From positions 1 to 32,000 of the forward strand of contig NC_022093.1 of the NCBI RefSeq assembly GCF_000446015.1: a DNA stretch of 32,000 nt, read 5' to 3'. Made by a program: the position numbers and the translations under genes. Within the stretch, counting starts at the first letter, position 1; the number at the start of each line of letters is the position of its first letter. Under the pieces are notes generated by a model. The model saw only the letters and a list, made by a program, of their open reading frames with translations. It was not told the origin of the DNA and searched no databases. The DNA is from Thermofilum adornatum (GTDB lineage: Archaea; Thermoproteota; Thermoprotei; Thermofilales; Thermofilaceae). Of this stretch, positions 9,156 to 25,151 are shown piece after piece.

Positions 9156-11138
9156 TTAATGTGAAGCAGGTATATTGACGTTTACAAGCGAGGAGATCAC
9201 TGTCTCGTAGGCCCTTACAAGTAGCTTTTCATAGGCGTCGTAGTCTGGGAGAATAGTCCCAGTGCCCGGCACCCTTACGCGGAGGTGGGGGCTCGACTTT
9301 GGATGTTTTGCTAACACAAAACATACCTTTGACCCCTTCCCGGACACGCCTGCCTGCTGGGCTGCAACAACGTGCATGGCCTTGACCTTGTACTTTTCCC
9401 TTCTAAGAGTCTTCTCTATCAAGAGCTCCTCCACCGGGACCAGCCCGCTACGTAGCCTCTCGACCTCCCTCTTCAGAAGCTCCTCGGCCGCTGACAAGGC
9501 CCCGTCTACGCCGGACTTCTCGAGCGTGCTGAAGACTGTCTCCACGAGCCTTGCCTGGAAGCTCCTGACGAATGGCGGGTAGTCGCTCCTAGCCGCCTCG
9601 ACGCCCTTAAACACGTATTCGCCCTCAGCCGTGACGCCGAAGTACCTCTTTACGGGTGACGCACGCGTGGTCTTCGCCTCTGGGAAAGCTATAAACCTGA
9701 ACAGCTTGTCGACCTTTATCGGCATACCGTACTTCTCGGCTATCTCTCCTGCAAGCTCCTCGTAGTCGCTCCGCGAGGCGCCGTCCCTATAGACAAAGAC
9801 GCTGTCCGTGTCGCCGTAGATGACCGTGTAGCCCTTCTCCCTCAGGAGCCCGTAGACCCCCAGCATGACTCTCCTGGCGAGCCTGTTTATCCACTCGAAC
9901 GTCAACGGGTTCCCGAGCCTGTTATAATTGTTACCACTGTACCCATAGCTAGAGACCAGTATCATCTTGAGCTCCTTCTGCCTCTGGTCTGCAAACCTCT
10001 TTGCGTCTCCAGAGAGCTCCCGGGCCATATGCTTAAACCTGAGCCTACGCTCAAGCAACGGCTCAACAACGTCCACGAGTATCCCCCTAGGCTCCCTGGC
10101 GACCCCGCCGAGCGAGACAGTCTCATAGCTGATATTGTACCTAACAATCAAGTTGGGAAACATAGACTCAAAGTCTAGCTCCGCGACGTTCCCATATATC
10201 CCCGTTACCGGCTGGTATATGAGCCCTCCCCTGTCGCCCCTGTGGAGCTCAAGCATTGTCCTCACGTGGACGTTCCTATGCCTAGCCCTGGGCACAGCGT
10301 AGCCCCTCCTAAGCAACAGGTAGACCTGCCTAGCGTCAATCAGCCTGCCATAGCTTGTCATACCCGCCAGGGTCGGAGACAGCCCCGTAGCCCTACACCT
10401 CTCCTCGAGGCCAGCGAGCCCTATGCCGTCCAGCAGACCCCTCTCGACGAATATCCTCCCCTCGAGGACGCCGTCTCCCCTCCCAAGCCTAAACCAGCCG
10501 TGGCGCCTCCTAACCCCAATAGCTAGCTTGCGAAGCTCCTTCACAGGCATATTCACAGCTACAACGTCGGGGTCAAGCTCCTTGAGCACGGCGTCGAGGC
10601 CTTCAAGGATCCTAGACTCAGACCCCTCAAAGACTTTTTCGCCCCCGTTACTCCTAATGACAGCCTTAGAGAGAAAGCCCCCGCGCACGTGTAGGTCGAG
10701 ACTCACCGTCACGAGTGGGAGCGGCTCGACCCTGTCCTCGCCCTCCACGAAGAGCCAGCCGCTACGCCTATACGACCTGAGAGCCACGATTCCCACTTCA
10801 GCGAATAGCTTCTGGACGACGTTCACGTCTGAGTCGTAGCTAGTAAAACCGGCGCCCTCTACGACCTTCAGAGCCTTTTGCAGGAGCCTGCGGGACCCGT
10901 GGGAGACCCTTAGAAATGCCCCAGTCTTCCCGCCTACAAGCCTCCTCTCAACCTCCTCGACACTGAAGCCCTGATCCCACAGGGAGGCGAGGAAGCCAAG
11001 AGCGCTACTCTCTACCAGGAAGTAGTCCTCGAAGCCCCTGCGGAGAGCCTCTACGCCGCCGTCAAGCCCCCTGAGCCACAGCCTGGCCTCTCCACGCGAG
11101 ACAGAGGCGTCAACCACTACTGATTCGCTCGACCTCAT
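9156..11138 (-). CDS. family B DNA polymerase, short form with degenerate exonuclease motifs (PolB2/Dpo2-like)
   Basis: Polymerase motifs: A 'LDFESMFPNLI', B 'KMILVSSYGYSG', C 'VIYGDTDSVFV', plus 'VKRYFG'. At the Exo I position the sequence reads 'VSLDLHV' instead of FDIE-type, and no clear Exo II/III motif is seen. The 660-aa length is shorter than replicative PolB enzymes. Confidence 0.85.
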   Translation of the reverse strand: MRSSESVVVDASVSRGEARLWLRGLDGGVEALRRGFEDYFLVESSALGFLASLWDQGFSVEEVERRLVGGKTGAFLRVSHGSRRLLQKALKVVEGAGFTSYDSDVNVVQKLFAEVGIVALRSYRRSGWLFVEGEDRVEPLPLVTVSLDLHVRGGFLSKAVIRSNGGEKVFEGSESRILEGLDAVLKELDPDVVAVNMPVKELRKLAIGVRRRHGWFRLGRGDGVLEGRIFVERGLLDGIGLAGLEERCRATGLSPTLAGMTSYGRLIDARQVYLLLRRGYAVPRARHRNVHVRTMLELHRGDRGGLIYQPVTGIYGNVAELDFESMFPNLIVRYNISYETVSLGGVAREPRGILVDVVEPLLERRLRFKHMARELSGDAKRFADQRQKELKMILVSSYGYSGNNYNRLGNPLTFEWINRLARRVMLGVYGLLREKGYTVIYGDTDSVFVYRDGASRSDYEELAGEIAEKYGMPIKVDKLFRFIAFPEAKTTRASPVKRYFGVTAEGEYVFKGVEAARSDYPPFVRSFQARLVETVFSTLEKSGVDGALSAAEELLKREVERLRSGLVPVEELLIEKTLRREKYKVKAMHVVAAQQAGVSGKGSKVCFVLAKHPKSSPHLRVRVPGTGTILPDYDAYEKLLVRAYETVISSLVNVNIPASH

Positions 11139-16234: not shown

Positions 16235-17359
16235 TTATTTCTCCCTATCCAGCCTACTTAGATGTTGAATTGACCTGGATAAATAGATGACTGCTGTGAG
16301 CGATGCGTGTGCAATGCTCAGGAATAGTCCATTCATTGGATTCCCAAGCACTGCAGAGACGAGGAAATAGATTAAGTAGAAATTTCTTCTGCCATCTATA
16401 ACTGCAAATTTCCTGTCGAAGTCGGAGTATGTCTTGAGACTCCTCCCCGTGATAAGTGCGAACTGGTTGAAGACATGCCTAGTGAAGCTGTCTATCACGA
16501 GGAAAATTATTCCCGTAACAAGTGCCTGTACTCCGTAGCCGTGAGTTCCCAGTCCTATGACAAGCGATGCGTAGACTGATTGCTCCCATAACGCATCTAG
16601 TGAATGCTCGAGGTGGCCAAGCTTCGTGAAACGGCCTCGGACTCTTGCCAGCTTTCCATCTACTCCGTCGAATATCCCTGCAATGTAGGCTACAACGCTT
16701 CCTAAGAAAAAGTAACCATTTAGGAAAAGGTAAATCACGGCCAGGGCTAATAGATTGACAAGCATAGTAATTCTATTTGGAGTGATCCACTTGATCTCTC
16801 CTATACTTTTCACGATAAAGTTCTCGAGGGGTGCATTCAGCATAGAAGTTAAATGGATGCCCTTCTGAGACCACATAACTATTGTTGCCTTAGATGTTTT
16901 TAGGTCTCCAGCATACACGCAGGCAGGTCTATGCCTTGGTTCAACAAAAGAATCAAGGTCTACGGCTTTATGTTCGGAACTAACAACTCTTTGGAGGACG
17001 GTTGTCTGTTTACATGTACCCACCGTATAATTGCTTTGAATGAATGTTCTAGTTGCGTCGGGGTGAACCAGGTAATCTGCCGAAATTATAATTGCTCCCT
17101 CGGTTGTTTTGAATCGTAGTTCGTCTATGCTACTTACATCTACATTTGTTTCTCCTATTTTCTCTAAGTAATCCCTGATTTGTGCAACTGTTTCTTTAGG
17201 GGCGAAGACTTGAATTTCTCTTATGCCCTGCGCCCTTATAGTTTGGATCCATCTTTCGATTGTTGTGGTGCCAAAGTGTGAAAGGAGAGCTACAGGTGTC
17301 TTTACGCCTTCTTTTTCTATAATTTCCCGGAAAACTAACAGTATCTTACCGAGACTCAT
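16235..17359 (-). CDS. CDP-alcohol phosphatidyltransferase-family membrane protein with a degenerate nucleotidyltransferase-like N-domain (DIPPS-like)
   Basis: 'ITPNRITMLVNLL' followed by 'FDGVDGKLARVRGRFTKLGHLEHSLD' (D-G-x-D-G-x2-A-R-x8-G-x2-E-x3-D). The start is taken at Met28 (17359), which gives a 14-nt overlap with the upstream gene. The N-terminal roughly 190 aa lack a G-rich NTP loop. Confidence 0.75.
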   Translation of the reverse strand: MSLGKILLVFREIIEKEGVKTPVALLSHFGTTTIERWIQTIRAQGIREIQVFAPKETVAQIRDYLEKIGETNVDVSSIDELRFKTTEGAIIISADYLVHPDATRTFIQSNYTVGTCKQTTVLQRVVSSEHKAVDLDSFVEPRHRPACVYAGDLKTSKATIVMWSQKGIHLTSMLNAPLENFIVKSIGEIKWITPNRITMLVNLLALAVIYLFLNGYFFLGSVVAYIAGIFDGVDGKLARVRGRFTKLGHLEHSLDALWEQSVYASLVIGLGTHGYGVQALVTGIIFLVIDSFTRHVFNQFALITGRSLKTYSDFDRKFAVIDGRRNFYLIYFLVSAVLGNPMNGLFLSIAHASLTAVIYLSRSIQHLSRLDREK

Positions 17360-19208
17360 ATTCAAGGGCACCCTCGATTCTTTTAATGATTTCAGAAAAA
17401 ACTTCCCCGAAAGCCTTATAGATAATTCTCGAGAGGTCATACAAAAAGAACAATAGGAAAAATAGCAGGACGAGTGAGGTAATCAACTCCAACAGTTGTC
17501 CTACTTTGGGTATTGTCCTCAACAAGGATGGGACGTAGAGAAGGGCAATTAGGGTTACTCCAAGGTATAAGAGATCGAGCCCGATGTGTTCAGCGACGCT
17601 TTCCGTTATGCCGAGGACACTTGTCATCTTTACCGCTAACGCGTCTACTAGCACCCTTACCCCGTCCAGGACATAGTAGCCATAGTATACGATTGCTAGT
17701 AGCGTGATAGCTGATACAGCTGTGCTCACGTCGATGCTTAGCAACCCAGTTTGTAGCAACGTATATCCGCCGAAGTAAGAATTAACATAGGACAGCACAA
17801 TCAAGACTAAAATTAGCTTGAACCCCTTGCTTCCAGCTCTCTCAAGTTTCCGCGCGATCATTCCCCTTCTCTCAGCGATTTTTGGGAACTCTTCTGCTAA
17901 ACGCAGAGGCTTAGCGGTGCCGATACGAGTACCACTAGAAAGCATGATAACTATGCCTGAGGCAATCCAATATGCCAGTGCTAGGATTTGCTGGTTTATC
18001 ATCACGAGTAACATTGCTAAGAAGAGCTTTACAGCAGGATCAGCAAGGAAAGTTAACGCGGGAGGCCTTATTTCTTCATGCTCAAAAATAACCGAAAGTA
18101 TAGAACTAGTTGCTCCCAAAACTGCGGCAAGGTAAAAGACGTTTGCGTTTATTTCCCCTAGACTGGCAACTAGGAAGTACAGCATACTCATCTCAGCGAG
18201 TGCCTGGCCAATTAAAGCAACATTGCCATAGGCTGGGAAAAGACCATGAAAAGAGACAATGACGTCGATGAAGTCTGTAAGAAAGATTAGGACATAGACA
18301 TATACAGCTAGATACATATATGATGTCTTGAGGGCATCCAAGAATAGAGAAGGGACAAGAGAAAACATTACAAGTAAAAACAAAGACAAAAGTATTGCTC
18401 CAGATGCGTTGTTTCTCTTTAGCTTGCCGGCAAGGTAGCCTGTTAAAGGCCTAACGAGTATTTTCGTTGCCAGACTAGAAGTCTTTCTACCATAGTCACG
18501 TAGGTTTATTTGCTTGTAAATTTTCCTGGCATAGAGCAAGTCGCTAGGCGTATCGATGTCTTTCCACAGAAATCCCGTGACATCTACGTAATCAACTTCT
18601 CCATCCTTTGCGGCCTTGTCGAGGGCATCACCTATAGATGCGTTTATGCCTTTTTCATTGATCACCTCCTCAATGTATCGGCGCGCATTTTCTCGAATGA
18701 TAATCAAGCCGGTATCTATCCCATACCTCGACTCAATGTTTTTGCCAACCTCTACGACTCTTCCTCCCTGCAACTTCACCTTTAGGCCCTCTTTTACCTC
18801 TGAAAGTGAGGGTTTCCTGTCAAGACATATAGTAAAAGCCTTGTTAGAGGAGTGAGTAAGCAACTTTTTCAGCATCTCGAACTCGAAAATGTGGTCGGAC
18901 ATCGCTACAAGAAAAGGAGGATCAACGTTTTTTAACGCCGTGTAAACTGTGTAGAGATTTCCAAACTCTTCAGCATCAATGCTCAAAATTATTGCTTTGT
19001 TTCCAAGCTTCTCCTTAAAGGGAGCAATATTTTCTTTCCTTGTAACCAAGTATATTGGGCTCAGGTTTGCCCTTGTAAACCTCTTAAGAATAAAGTCGAG
19101 GATCGTCACTCCAGGCTCAAGCTCCATTAGAGATTTGGGCCTCTCAAGAGAGTAGGGCTGGAGCCTGCTTGCAATGCCACCTGCGACGATAACCACGGGA
19201 AAAGTCAT
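17346..19208 (-). CDS. nucleotidyltransferase (inositol/sugar-phosphate cytidylyltransferase-like) fused to a polytopic membrane domain
   Basis: 'VVIVAGGIASRLQPYSLERPKSL' NTP-transferase loop, 'VAMSDHIF' and 'LWKDIDTPSDL', followed by about 10 hydrophobic helices. Where the CDP-alcohol motif would sit, the sequence reads 'LTDFIDVIVSF'. Confidence 0.75.
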   Translation of the reverse strand: MTFPVVIVAGGIASRLQPYSLERPKSLMELEPGVTILDFILKRFTRANLSPIYLVTRKENIAPFKEKLGNKAIILSIDAEEFGNLYTVYTALKNVDPPFLVAMSDHIFEFEMLKKLLTHSSNKAFTICLDRKPSLSEVKEGLKVKLQGGRVVEVGKNIESRYGIDTGLIIIRENARRYIEEVINEKGINASIGDALDKAAKDGEVDYVDVTGFLWKDIDTPSDLLYARKIYKQINLRDYGRKTSSLATKILVRPLTGYLAGKLKRNNASGAILLSLFLLVMFSLVPSLFLDALKTSYMYLAVYVYVLIFLTDFIDVIVSFHGLFPAYGNVALIGQALAEMSMLYFLVASLGEINANVFYLAAVLGATSSILSVIFEHEEIRPPALTFLADPAVKLFLAMLLVMINQQILALAYWIASGIVIMLSSGTRIGTAKPLRLAEEFPKIAERRGMIARKLERAGSKGFKLILVLIVLSYVNSYFGGYTLLQTGLLSIDVSTAVSAITLLAIVYYGYYVLDGVRVLVDALAVKMTSVLGITESVAEHIGLDLLYLGVTLIALLYVPSLLRTIPKVGQLLELITSLVLLFFLLFFLYDLSRIIYKAFGEVFSEIIKRIEGALEYESR

Positions 19209-21358: not shown

Positions 21359-22219
21359 CTAGCGAGACACGTTTTCCCGGCTTTCCTTTACTCGGCCCTT
21401 GTCCCCCGCTAAACTAGAAACATTTATCACACCGTAGCCAGCGGTCCTGTTACCGCCGACATTGGTGATTTCTCCGAGCCTCAGGAGCCCGGCTATCAGC
21501 TTCTTGGCGCTTGTAGAGGCGTCCTTCTTGAACCTCAGCCTGACCCAGCCCGTGAACCCGTTGGGGGCCGGCTTGGAGGCCTCCATCCTGGGCGTCCTGA
21601 TTTCTAGCCCGCTTATGTAGACCTTCTCAGCTAGCTCGCTGGGCTTGGGAAAGCCCTGGCCCGTCAGGTCGTGGGCAACAGCTACTAGGCTTGCAAAGAG
21701 GTGCTCGGGGTCCGGGTAGAGGACTTTGTAGCTCTGGTCGCCCCTAAGGGGGTTGAAGTACGTCGGCGTGAGAAAACGCACGTCCAGAGACTCCGGCGCG
21801 TCCTCGCCACTAATCACGCTCGATGGGTCGATAATCCTAATAGAGAGGCCGACAAGCCCAAACTCGACCCCGTTCACCTCTAGCCCCAGCGGACTAGTCG
21901 CGAGAATAGACACAAGCCGCCTAGAAGCCTCCTCGTCAAAAACCGCAACCTCCAGGCTACACCTAGCCCCCCTCTCAAAAACAACGCCCCCAAAAGAGGA
22001 CCCAGACTCTACAACACTGTAGCCAGACAAGAAACGCAGAGGCTTAAGAGAAAAAACAGACCTCCCACCCCTCCCCGAATGCAACAACTCAGACAGCCCA
22101 GAGTCAAGCCGTCTAACCATCCCCAGGAAAGCCCCACGGCTCTCTGCCCCAGCAAACACTGGAAGAGAGCCCCCACCCCCAGCAGAAAACTCGAAAACAA
22201 AATACACGATCGAAACCAT
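21359..22219 (-). CDS. cas6: CRISPR-associated endoribonuclease Cas6
   Basis: 'FLTPTYF' and 'PDPEHLFASLV', plus the C-terminal glycine-rich loop 'GEITNVGGNRTAGYGV'. The start is set at Met22 (22219), with the TATA-like 'GTTTAAAGTTTTTA' about 33 nt upstream. The gene lies directly downstream of the array on the same strand. Confidence 0.85.
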   Translation of the reverse strand: MVSIVYFVFEFSAGGGGSLPVFAGAESRGAFLGMVRRLDSGLSELLHSGRGGRSVFSLKPLRFLSGYSVVESGSSFGGVVFERGARCSLEVAVFDEEASRRLVSILATSPLGLEVNGVEFGLVGLSIRIIDPSSVISGEDAPESLDVRFLTPTYFNPLRGDQSYKVLYPDPEHLFASLVAVAHDLTGQGFPKPSELAEKVYISGLEIRTPRMEASKPAPNGFTGWVRLRFKKDASTSAKKLIAGLLRLGEITNVGGNRTAGYGVINVSSLAGDKGRVKESRENVSR

Positions 22220-22300
22220 ATAAAGCAATACACACTCCCACAATAAAAACTTTAAACAAAACTCAATCGACAAAGCTAGCATAATCTAAGACCAAGCCAC

Positions 22301-22456
22301 CTTTCAATTCATTCTTTTCTGATACATGCAAACATAGGAATAGAGGGCTGGAACGAATTATTCGTCTTTCAATTCATTCTTTTCTGATACTTCGACGATA
22401 TGCTTGACGCCGCATTCAGAGCATTCTTTACCTTTCAATTCATTCTTTTCTGATAC
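22301..22456 (-). CRISPR. mini CRISPR array, 3 identical 25-nt repeats and 2 spacers
   Basis: Repeats at 22301-22325, 22366-22390 and 22432-22456 read CTTTCAATTCATTCTTTTCTGATAC on the plus strand, which is GTATCAGAAAAGAATGAATTGAAAG on the minus strand. Spacers are 40 and 41 nt. The ATTGAAAG 3' end sets the transcription direction to the minus strand. Confidence 0.92.
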
Positions 22457-22715
22457 TGTTTCTTTGGGGTTTATTTTGTTTGGGTGTTATTTATTTGTTT
22501 GTGTGTTGTGTGAAAGTGTTTTTATGTCAAAGTTTTCCATGGAATATATTAGCTTTGTTTTAGTTTTCCAATTGTGAGTTATAAATGATATGGATCGGGA
22601 AGAGAGGCCAGGGAAGAATGTATTTTCAGAAATGGCTTCTTCCCGTAGGCTATTAACTTTTCCCGTGGAAATCGTTTCTACAGAGATTTCTAGGGGAAAC
22701 ATTTCCTCCCACCCC
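22457..22715 (-). promoter_or_regulatory. CRISPR leader A, with TATA-like box near the first repeat
   Basis: A/T-rich, non-coding and abutting the leader-proximal repeat. The minus strand reads AAATAAATAA (22487-22496), about 35 nt from the repeat. The whole segment recurs as an inverted copy at 23164-23421. Confidence 0.7.
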
Positions 22716-22869
22716 GTATCACGACAGAAAAACCTCTGTTATTCACTTTCCATTTATTTCTTATTTTTATCTTAGGAGATGATGACTGTCTGGTTAGAGC
22801 GGAGGACAAGGTATACATTTGGGGTTATGGGGCACAGCTATTTGTTGATACTGGTTCAGGGCGGTTTTT

Positions 22870-23148
22870 TCACCATTTGGCTTTGAAGGGTGTGTATGGG
22901 GCTTGGTCCCTAATTGCCCTTGCAAACATCCCGGCCTGCGTCAAGACGAGCTACTGTATTGGCGGTTTCGCCGTCTTCATGTTTTCATTTAGGAGCCTCC
23001 ACACATGCTTCACAGATTCTGACTTCTTTTCACCGTCTTCTGAGAGGAGGTTTGCCAGGCTTGAGGGATTTGTCCTGGCAAGCTTTATCAGGGGCCTGTC
23101 GACGGCTATGGGTCTGAATTCCTCCATGAGGTCTAGTACTAGGCTCAT
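22870..23148 (-). pseudogene. cas1: cas1 relic (C-terminal third only, interrupted by an in-frame TAG)
   Basis: '[17 protein letters not shown]' matches the conserved Cas1 helix/active-site segment. Reading through the TAG at 22951-22953 continues in frame as 'LVLTQAGMFARAIRDQAPYTPFKAKW*', a Cas1-like C-terminus. The N-terminal two thirds or so are absent. Confidence 0.7.
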
Positions 23149-23163
23149 CCTGCCTGGCCTACG

Positions 23164-23421
23164 GGCGTGGAGGAAAGAGTTCCCCTAGAAATCTCTGTAG
23201 AAATGTTTTCTACGGGAAGCCTTAACGTTTTATGGGAAGTAGACTTTTTGTAAAATAAGTTCTTCCCTGGCCTCTCTTCCCGATCCATATCATTTACCAT
23301 GCACAATGAGAAAACTAATGAAAAATTAATACTTCCAATGGGAAACACTTACACAAAAACACTTTCACACAACAGAGAAACAAATAAATAACACCAATAC
23401 AAAATAAACCACTGGGAAACA
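23164..23421 (+). promoter_or_regulatory. CRISPR leader B (inverted copy of leader A)
   Basis: By eye, roughly 75-85% identical to the reverse complement of 22457-22715. This includes the AAATAAATAA box (about 23383-23392) and the GAAACA junction with the repeat. Confidence 0.7.
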
Positions 23422-23446
23422 GTATCAGAAACGAATGAATTGAAAG
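23422..23446 (+). CRISPR. solitary CRISPR repeat following leader B
   Basis: GTATCAGAAACGAATGAATTGAAAG differs from the array repeat at one position (A to C at repeat nt 11). No second repeat is found 60-70 nt downstream. Confidence 0.75.
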
Positions 23447-23681
23447 GGACGGAGAAGCAACTGGTGCGTGGGGTGCTGTTCAGGTGTCTACATGGTGATA
23501 TAAGCGGGCTTAGCTTATATGAAGCACCGGCACATCAGTATGTGTCAATGGAGGAATGATGTATCAGTGCGTTTTCGAGAAAAAATGCCAAAGTAATGGG
23601 ATTGCCTTTGCGTTGAATAGTAGAGAAGTAGAGACTGCTGGTTGTATAGGAAAACAAGCATCTTACTGTGGGGCTTTTGAT

Positions 23682-24077
23682 CTATTTATTGCAGGGTCCA
23701 GCGCGTGCCAAGAGAGCATCGGCTATTAGTCCTAGGCCGAAGCCAAGTATTAGGCCTGCCAACAAGTTGTTGAAAAGGATTCCGAGGCCAAACCCAACGA
23801 TTATAAAGCTGGCCCACAAATTTTCTCTCATACGTGGCGACTTGTTATCCTTCTCGCCGCTTATAGTAAGCACAAGTGCGGGCCCTTCGAGCTTCTCGAC
23901 AACATAGACTAGGAGACCTATGCCTAGGCCCACAAGGATAAAGCCAAGAAGCATTAGCAACTCTGCTTGGCTATATGTGCCGAGTAGCCCTAGACCAAGG
24001 AACAAAAGGACAAAGCCGCCAATTATTGCCGCCGCGTCCCATATAGGGATTTTACGCTTCTCCCCAGTGCTCTGCAC
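23682..24077 (-). CDS. small integral membrane protein (about 4 TM), unknown function
   Basis: Four G/L/I-rich hydrophobic helices separated by short charged loops. No recognised motif. Confidence 0.55.
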   Translation of the reverse strand: MQSTGEKRKIPIWDAAAIIGGFVLLFLGLGLLGTYSQAELLMLLGFILVGLGIGLLVYVVEKLEGPALVLTISGEKDNKSPRMRENLWASFIIVGFGLGILFNNLLAGLILGFGLGLIADALLARAGPCNK

Positions 24078-24158: not shown

Positions 24159-25151
24159 TTAAAAGAGCTTCCAGAGTTCCTCGGCTATGGGTAGCCCTAT
24201 TTCTATTTTTTCTCCGGTCTTTTTTACGAGTAGGCTGTGCCCGTTTTTCTTGAATTCGCCTATGATTGTTGCTTTTACTCCCTCCTTTTGTAGCCTTTCT
24301 ATGAGTATTGGGGCTGATTCTGGCTGGACTGCGATTAGGAGTGTGCCCGAGCTTATGAGCCCCAGTGCGTCTAGGCCGAGGGCTCTGCATATTTGTGCTG
24401 TTTCTCTTCTTAGTGGTATCTTTTCCTCGTATAGGACCACGCTGAGCCTAGAGGCGTATGCTATTTCTAGGGCCGCGGCGAGGATGCCTCCCTCGGTGGC
24501 GTCGTGCATTGCGTGGACCCCGTGGACCTGGGCCGCTGTTAGGGCTTCTTTTACGACGCTTATCTCGTGTATGAAGTTTTTGGCGTTCTCGAGGATTGAC
24601 TTGTCTATTTTGCCTAGCAGCTTGTCGTGGAAGTCTGTGGCTATGATTGATGTGCCTTCTAGTGCCGCGTCTTTTGTCGCTACGAGTAGGTCTCCGTCCC
24701 GTCCCCCGCTAGTCGTGAAGAACTTTTCCTTTTCGCCGACCCCGAAGGCCGTTGTAATGATTATTGGCCTGTCGAGTCCCGGGGTTATCTCGGTGTGTCC
24801 CCCTATAACGGTTGCGTCTATCTCGTCAGCGGCGCTCCTTATCTGGCTGGCCAGCTTTTTTAGTTGTTCCCTGGAAAAGGTTTGGGGCAACAGTAGGGTT
24901 GTGACTAGCCAGCTTGGCTTGACTCCCCTCGTGGCTATGTCGTTTGCGACGACGTGGACGGATAGCCAGCCCGCGAGCTCGGAGGCGCCCGTTATCGGGT
25001 CGCTGTGTGTTACGAGGACCTTGTCTCCTAGGTCTACTATTGCCGCGTCTTCTCCAATGGCTGGGCCTAGGAGGACGCTTGGGTCCCGGCGAGTGAGAAT
25101 TCCCAGCAGCTCTGATAGTTCTTCTTGGGAGAGTTTACCGTAAGGCTTCAT
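24159..25151 (-). CDS. AIR synthase-related (PurM/HypE/SelD-fold) ATP-dependent enzyme
   Basis: 'GEDAAIVDLGDKVLVTHSDPITG', 'GGHTEITPG' and 'MHDATEGGILAAALE' match PurM-superfamily motifs. Confidence 0.8.
   Translation of the reverse strand: MKPYGKLSQEELSELLGILTRRDPSVLLGPAIGEDAAIVDLGDKVLVTHSDPITGASELAGWLSVHVVANDIATRGVKPSWLVTTLLLPQTFSREQLKKLASQIRSAADEIDATVIGGHTEITPGLDRPIIITTAFGVGEKEKFFTTSGGRDGDLLVATKDAALEGTSIIATDFHDKLLGKIDKSILENAKNFIHEISVVKEALTAAQVHGVHAMHDATEGGILAAALEIAYASRLSVVLYEEKIPLRRETAQICRALGLDALGLISSGTLLIAVQPESAPILIERLQKEGVKATIIGEFKKNGHSLLVKKTGEKIEIGLPIAEELWKLF

Follow-up and report, generated by a model that had tools for sequence, protein, structure and literature searches.

In Saccharolobus solfataricus and Sulfolobus islandicus, as in other crenarchaeal type I-A CRISPR-Cas modules of this kind, two divergent arrays flank the cas genes, and the locus that we describe here is closest to this plan. 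A second known case is Infirmifilum (Thermofilum) uzonense 1807-2 (here G005), where two large divergent arrays at 551-574 kb flank a type I-A cassette; two CRISPR stretches, about 13 kb in total, have been reported for this organism (PMC4673724). The same order and direction of cas1, leader and array recur in another genome (G001) and in three further metagenome contigs. Orphan or degenerate arrays and cas pseudogenes, left where a cas operon has been lost, are also known; as in the present case, a deletion joined at a microhomology removes cas genes, and arrays and leaders survive. Deletions by microhomology-mediated end joining have been reported in an archaeon, Haloferax (PMC7521656). Chromosomal targeting leads to deletions (PMC3630108), and loss of the cas operon is a known escape from self-targeting. 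Both the architecture considered here (type I-A with paired divergent arrays) and the process (cassette loss that leaves orphan arrays) are already known.

We analyzed a stretch of 32,000 nucleotides (the window), which is the first 32 kb of the single 1,750,259-bp contig (46.5% G+C) of Thermofilum adornatus 1910b. The locus within it resembles that of G005 in its repeat (0-1 mismatch), in the ATTGAAAG handle that ends the repeat, in the order and direction of cas1, leader and array, and in leaders that point outward from the place of the csa3...cas1 cassette. However, the cassette is gone save for 102 codons of cas1, there are 3 + 1 repeats as opposed to roughly 135 + 70, and the G005 locus lies in another genomic neighbourhood with flanks that are not syntenic with those of the window. 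We consider it highly probable that a single microhomology-mediated deletion, which removed a complete type I-A cassette from between two divergent arrays, left this locus as its scar. It differs from other orphan arrays in that a natural relative reveals precisely what the site looked like before the deletion and where the two breakpoints lie. In contrast to cases of escape from self-targeting, no spacer matches the organism's own genome, and there is no sign that self-targeting drove the loss. The features of the locus are collected in Table 1.

Table 1. Features of the T. adornatus locus, with positions in the window
Feature	Position	Strand	Description
cas6	21359..22219	minus	intact, 286-aa gene call; longer ORF reaches 22282
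Array A	22301..22456	minus	3 perfect 25-nt repeats and 2 spacers
Spacer s2	22326-22365	minus	distal spacer of array A
Spacer s1	22391-22431	minus	leader-adjacent spacer of array A
Leader A	22457..22869	minus	leader-family part 22457-22749 (~293 nt), then 120 nt to the old cas1 stop
cas1 remnant	22870..23175	minus	last 102 codons
Deletion junction	23169..23175		7-nt microhomology; plus strand GGAGGAA, coding strand TTCCTCC
Leader B, truncated	23176..23421	plus	distal ~40 nt of the leader family gone, all repeat-proximal blocks kept
Side B	23422..23446	plus	single repeat, A11C variant, no spacer; trailer-side conserved flank follows directly
Conserved 131-aa ORF	23682..24077	minus	no known family; flank marker for synteny
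AIR-synthase-like gene	24159-25151		flank marker for synteny with the intact locus

The repeat is matched three times on the minus strand (22301-22325, 22366-22390 and 22432-22456) with 0 mismatches and once on the plus strand, at side B, with 1 mismatch; the chance expectation is 0 in 100 shuffles. Array A, with its three identical 25-nt repeats and its spacers of 40 and 41 nt, is a CRISPR array in the usual sense. This is how a first-pass annotation, made from the sequence alone, had described it, and the accompanying description of the two leaders as inverted copies, each ending with GAAACA joined to the repeat, is borne out as well. The inverted arms (22431-22718 and 23160-23447) extend over 288 nt at 81% complementarity with 441 nt between them (BLAST E about 1e-73), and GAAACA lies immediately 5' of the repeat in both leaders. 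Other details need adjustment. Leader A is real, but its conserved part reaches 22749 and does not stop at 22715. The cas1 fragment between the arms is genuine, but its sequence extends about 16 nt into arm B, where cas1 and leader resemble each other by chance. On side B, the single repeat with one substitution was correctly seen. However, A11C is the commonest variant of the family elsewhere in the genome; it occurs in most distal repeats of this repeat family and throughout the array at 571 kb, and so is an old variant as opposed to random decay. That nothing follows this repeat is true of the 1910b assembly, in which side B is strictly not an array, but in each of the other assemblies of the species in which side B is covered (8 records) there are two repeats, with one 41-nt spacer, which we call sB.

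Leader A belongs to a set of eight paralogous A/T-rich leaders in this genome and is 80-88% identical to the other 7 over about 293 nt. Across the eight, invariant blocks are found 16-48 nt before the repeat, among them an A-rich block of 18 nt that lies 31-48 nt ahead of the repeat. Two inverted repeats are also conserved in the leaders. One consists of TTCCCC-N-GAAATC paired with its complement around CTGTAGAAA, while the other consists of GGGAAGAA paired with TTCTTCCC, about 20 nt apart. A regulator or the integration machinery may act at these inverted repeats and the A-rich block. In a further genome (G004), the distal leader block is 81% conserved and lies 5' of a 35-repeat array beside the cas6 of that genome. 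An Rfam scan of 21900-23900 found no known RNA family, the one match being sub-threshold and attributable to chance.

The cas1 remnant matches Pfam PF01867 with 44 bits, which is above the cut-off, at model positions 217-253. It carries an in-frame TAG at 22951-22953, a site that is CAG or AAC in relatives, while the ancestral stop, TGA, is still present at 22870-22872. The remnant is 67% identical at the amino acid level to residues 250-351 of the Cas1 of G005, which ends at the same place. A plus-strand ORF of 103 aa (22877-23188) was considered as a gene and rejected, as it is antisense to the cas1 remnant and matches no family. Between or beside the two leaders of the window we found none of the type I-A genes csa5/cas8a, cas7 (csa2), cas5a, cas3' and cas3''. 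From the adaptation set (cas1, cas2, cas4 and csa1), the locus holds nothing but cas1 codons 240-340 with their TAG. It is thus a remnant of a type I-A module and not a member of this type, and it has the properties of an orphan or degenerate CRISPR locus, i.e., an array and leader are kept in the absence of intact cas genes of the matching type.

The adjacent cas6 is co-oriented with array A and directly 3' of it, starting 81 nt past the last repeat, or 19 nt past it if the longer ORF is used. The gene product matches Pfam PF10040 at 54.6 bits, and NCBIfam TIGR01877 at an E-value of 1e-9 with 39.2 bits, which is below the 58.65-bit cut-off of that model. Orthologues in 4 genomes of the genus are 52-58% identical, with alignments that begin at residue ~25, and a length of 286 aa is also called for cas6 in other T. 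adornatus assemblies. A TTTAAA box is located 33-39 nt 5' of the ATG, which suggests that cas6 has its own promoter. Near the orthologues of G001, G003 and G005 there is no common flank and no array within 1.5 kb. Only in G004 is there a related array, with 35 repeats and a leader, upstream of cas6, and no cas1 lies within 15 kb of it.

The first-pass annotation had proposed a comparison with close relatives as a route to the ancestral arrangement, and such a comparison revealed it. A search with the Cas1 of G005 found an intact Cas1 of 340 aa (P0005) on a 12.5-kb contig from a hot-spring metagenome (JGI 3300005860, Ga0080004_1130938), which we refer to as L063. On this contig, the AIR-synthase-like gene and the 131-aa ORF are followed by array B, here with 4 repeats, and by leader B in its full length of 293 nt. 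Then come csa3, csa5, cas7, cas5a, a 357-aa gene, cas3', cas3'', cas2, cas4, csa1 and cas1, and after these leader A, array A with 2 repeats and the stretch 5' of cas6. The 357-aa gene is taken to be cas8a by its position only. L063 thus has the same flanking genes on both sides, both leaders and the same repeat as the window; unlike the window, it keeps 9,146 bp with eleven cas genes, and it has other spacers. The flanks are 93.5% identical to those of the window. As a limit on the deletion history that we draw from it, our intact reference is one metagenome contig only, and of another lineage instead of a strain of the same species. Identity is 86.7% for leader A and 85% for leader B, and the single repeat on side B corresponds in the alignment to the distal-most of the four array B repeats. 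The cas1 remnant is 92% identical to P0005 in amino acids and 95.4% in nucleotides without indels; among the codon differences, 7 are nonsynonymous and 5 are synonymous.

A three-way comparison of the breakpoints resolves the window into leader B of L063 up to a heptamer, TTCCTCC, and cas1 of L063 after it. This heptamer occurs in L063 at 1572-1578, in the distal part of leader B, and again at 10718-10724, in cas1 codons 240-242, whereas the window has a single copy. The two copies in L063 form a perfect 7-nt core within an imperfect match of 13/16 positions and are 9,146 bp apart. The deletion starts 40 nt inside leader B and ends at cas1 codon 240. A direct repeat at both breakpoints, with one copy left at the junction, is what defines a microhomology-mediated deletion, and one such event explains the whole structure, including the 40 nt missing from the outer end of leader B. 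Homologous recombination between leaders A and B, which have opposite orientations, should invert the intervening segment and not delete it, which we infer fits a chance microhomology. Less simply, several successive deletions might have ended at the same two sites. The earlier proposal that an adaptation cassette had been deleted from between two arrays is therefore upheld by the intact syntenic locus and by exact breakpoints, and can be widened from the adaptation genes to the complete type I-A module from csa3 to cas1.

We located further copies of the locus by exact look-ups of the aldolase, the 131-aa ORF and the 65-aa ORF of the cas1 stub, in data that included chromosome-sized MAG contigs and assemblies of raw runs (Logan). 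The identical 65-aa stub ORF was found in 16 independent contigs, always between the 131-aa ORF and cas6, and the junction and spacers s1 and s2 match the window at 99.9-100% identity. The cas1 stub therefore appears to be fixed in the species. An arrangement shared in this compact form among related genomes had been put forward as the sign of a stable minimal locus. Formally, the arrangement is indeed shared; however, since these genomes are 99.9-100% identical, the observation is silent on selection.

Over 2.8 kb, the contigs differ from the window at just five sites. A 66-nt unit that consists of spacer sB and a repeat is missing solely in the window, and another 66-nt unit, consisting of spacer s1 and a repeat, is missing solely in one assembly (L040, the chromosome-sized MAG contig of GCA_038871715.1); both s1 and s2 were found in 5 other assemblies. 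A SNP at 22605, which is linked with a 1-nt indel at 22609, divides the strains into two groups. Because sB and s1 are each present in both groups, we regard the absence of sB from the window and of s1 from L040 as losses. Three assemblies (L039, L047 and L045) have an extra T at 21996, which frameshifts cas6 and results in gene calls of 184 aa instead of 286 aa. At A or B, the strains compared show losses only and no new spacers. That sB is absent from the window may reflect either a loss specific to this strain or arrays collapsed locally in the short-read assembly of 2013, and we consider the assembly to be the less likely culprit, though by no means a negligible one. The suggestion that both arrays had collapsed is accordingly right insofar as single units were lost in individual strains; on the other hand, the intact L063 also has 2 and 4 repeats, so the small arrays are a trait of the lineage and not a result of the deletion.

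In the genome as a whole there are 20 CRISPR loci, which belong to two repeat families with the 3' handle alone in common. Family 1, to which the window's locus belongs, comprises eight loci with 1-11 repeats, each behind one of the ~293-nt leaders. Family 2 comprises twelve loci with 1-27 repeats and an unrelated leader. A solitary family-2 repeat is located on the plus strand at 41674-41698, just past the window, and several further loci of both families have one to three repeats. A search of the rest of the genome for the same repeat and for cas genes, as had been advised at the outset, thus found same-family arrays, and it also found a Cmr module and an adaptation set. The sole intact cas1, cas2, cas4 and csa1 lie at 622.9-625.5 kb beside the largest family-2 array, and are followed by cas7 and cas3. 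A type III-B module (RAMPs, Cmr5, an 1101-aa Cas10/Cmr2, Cmr3 and Csx1) is located directly 3' of a family-1 array at 370.5 kb.

The Cmr module and Csx1 (359.3-370.8 kb) are situated between two co-oriented family-1 arrays, whose leaders are 91% identical. Four other strains are without this 11.4-kb segment, and the join is within repeats, at different repeats of the 359-kb array, such that 2, 1 or 0 spacers are left. In strain 1505, a still larger segment is missing at the site, and four unrelated spacers are found there. An exact look-up of the Cmr RAMP protein returned no match, and one of Cmr5 matched one short contig only, which we attribute to the absence of the module from other strains. 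In one genome, GCA_038727395, absence of the Cmr module and the frameshift in cas6 occur together. As at the window's locus, a cas module has been lost from between family-1 arrays, here within the same species. However, the loss of Cmr involved the long homology of directly repeated arrays and leaders, as opposed to a chance 7-nt match at a locus whose leaders are inverted.

Several other readings of the locus deserve consideration. One is that it is a stable and working minimal locus, in which one to three repeats are acceptor sites for spacers that are taken up in trans via the Cas1-Cas2-Cas4 at 623-625 kb. We consider this improbable, although a number of observations agree with it: every repeat-proximal conserved block is kept in both leaders, an intact cas6 adjoins array A, the spacers of a sister array are entirely different in strain 1505, and the missing spacers are leader-adjacent (in array A of L040, and in the 359-kb array of two other strains, L055 and L053), as a polar gain would give. 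However, the SNP grouping indicates that sB and s1 were lost, and a history of gains alone would need the same spacer to have been acquired twice. Moreover, the genome's only intact Cas1 (623.8-624.7 kb) is just 29% identical to the Cas1 of family 1, and the leaders and repeats that go with it have only the 3' handle in common with family 1. In Sulfolobales, leader, repeat and Cas1 vary together, which we count against uptake in trans. In addition, no strain has a new spacer at A or B, and all eight family-1 arrays are short. These points also speak against the first-pass alternative that a leader with one repeat still acquires spacers. A related idea is that leader-plus-repeat stubs such as side B are integration-competent "seed" arrays, which the unrelated family-2 Cas1-Cas2-Cas4 refill in trans, or that the ~293-nt leader-array units are portable recombination sites by which cas cassettes (type I-A and Cmr) move in and out of Thermofilum genomes. 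We hold this, too, to be improbable; if the stubs were seed arrays, the genome's one- to four-repeat loci would be a turning-over reservoir and not fossils.

It is also important to consider that the structure might be an artefact, e.g., collapsed arrays or mis-joined leaders. MiSeq and PGM data went into the 1910b genome, a short-read assembly that was scaffolded and gap-filled using CLC, SSPACE and GapFiller (PMC3772148). The genome has 20 CRISPR loci in two repeat families, and a side B with one repeat is unique to this assembly. However, the identical stub, the same junction and the same s1 and s2 in sixteen independent contigs make an artefactual origin of the locus very improbable, and the 7-nt identity at the junction is too short for a mis-join by an assembler, with leaders that are only 80-88% alike. 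Finally, a leader-repeat unit might recently have been duplicated in inverted orientation into cas1, in which case two ancestral arrays never flanked a cassette. The arms are in fact inverted copies, one of which abuts a truncated cas1. However, A and B are the most divergent pair of leaders in the family (81%): leader A is closest to those at 371 kb and 359 kb (88% and 84%), and leader B to those at 571 kb, 345 kb and 356 kb (88-86%). L063 already has both leaders in the same positions and orientations, and the cas genes upstream of the stub are absent, which fits a deletion and not an insertion. We therefore find a recent duplication scarcely credible.

Under the deletion hypothesis, which we prefer, the ancestral order on the minus strand of the window would have been array B, leader B, csa3 ... 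cas1, leader A, array A and cas6. The direct repeat TTCCTCC would have been a chance match between distal leader B and cas1 codons 240-242, and joining at this match would have removed about 9.1 kb. The product would have been a leader B short of its 40 outermost nt and continuous with the final 102 codons of cas1. This event presumably took place after the split from the lineage with 93.5%-identical flanks and before the sampled T. adornatus strains spread. Later erosion would then account for the change of CAG to TAG in the cas1 stub, the loss of one unit of side B here and of one unit of side A in another strain, and the cas6 frameshift in a third lineage.

The functions of the remaining parts can be predicted with less confidence. 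What leaders, Cas6 and 5' handles do in general has been reviewed (PMC7694759). Given that leader A is complete, that cas6 is intact with a TATA-like box, and that a Cmr module of the same family is present, array A could supply two crRNAs to effectors that are encoded elsewhere. In such a scheme, array A would still be transcribed from leader A, the adjacent Cas6 would cut the RNA into two crRNAs with the ATTGAAAG handle, and these might be used by the Cmr module at 360-370 kb and possibly by a second type I-A system at 622-631 kb. The first-pass suggestion that the locus is served by cas genes elsewhere is therefore plausible as far as the use of crRNAs is concerned: cas6 is adjacent, and the type III-B genes lie beside another array of the same family. 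Side B of 1910b has no spacer and would yield no crRNA. New spacers are not expected at either A or B, because the matching Cas1-Cas2 have been lost, while the adaptation genes that remain go with another leader and repeat family. At the level of the species, any lasting function is doubtful, since Cmr is absent from several sister strains and cas6 is frameshifted in several, and the family-1 system seems to be disappearing.

As to targets, we found no credible protospacer for s1, s2 or sB using 24-mers in IMG/VR, blastn against phage records, the organism's own genome and all of the loci that we fetched; the matches of the blastn comparison with phage records were chance matches centred on the repeat. 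The proposed search of the two spacers of array A against viral sequences thus gave no target in IMG/VR or phage records.

In our view, the contribution of this locus is an exact reconstruction and not a new type of element or a new kind of system. It offers a base-exact natural example of the loss of an archaeal CRISPR-Cas module, with all stages readable from public sequences. Leader-array units outlive cas genes in T. adornatus, where a second cassette (Cmr) is being lost by a different route. The reconstruction should be useful for genome annotation and for the study of CRISPR turnover in Thermofilaceae.

Two further observations concern the surroundings of such loci. In contigs of more distant origin (L065-L067), whose Cas1 is 85% identical, the same type I-A cassette and an array of 13-14 repeats are beside DUF211 and VIT1 genes. 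DUF211 and VIT1 genes are also present near the window's locus, in a different order, which suggests local rearrangement around the type I-A module. The other observation is from L040, which is without the overlapping NTP-transferase and CDP-alcohol phosphatidyltransferase genes of the window (16235-19208), such that the spermine-synthase-like gene directly follows the PadR gene.
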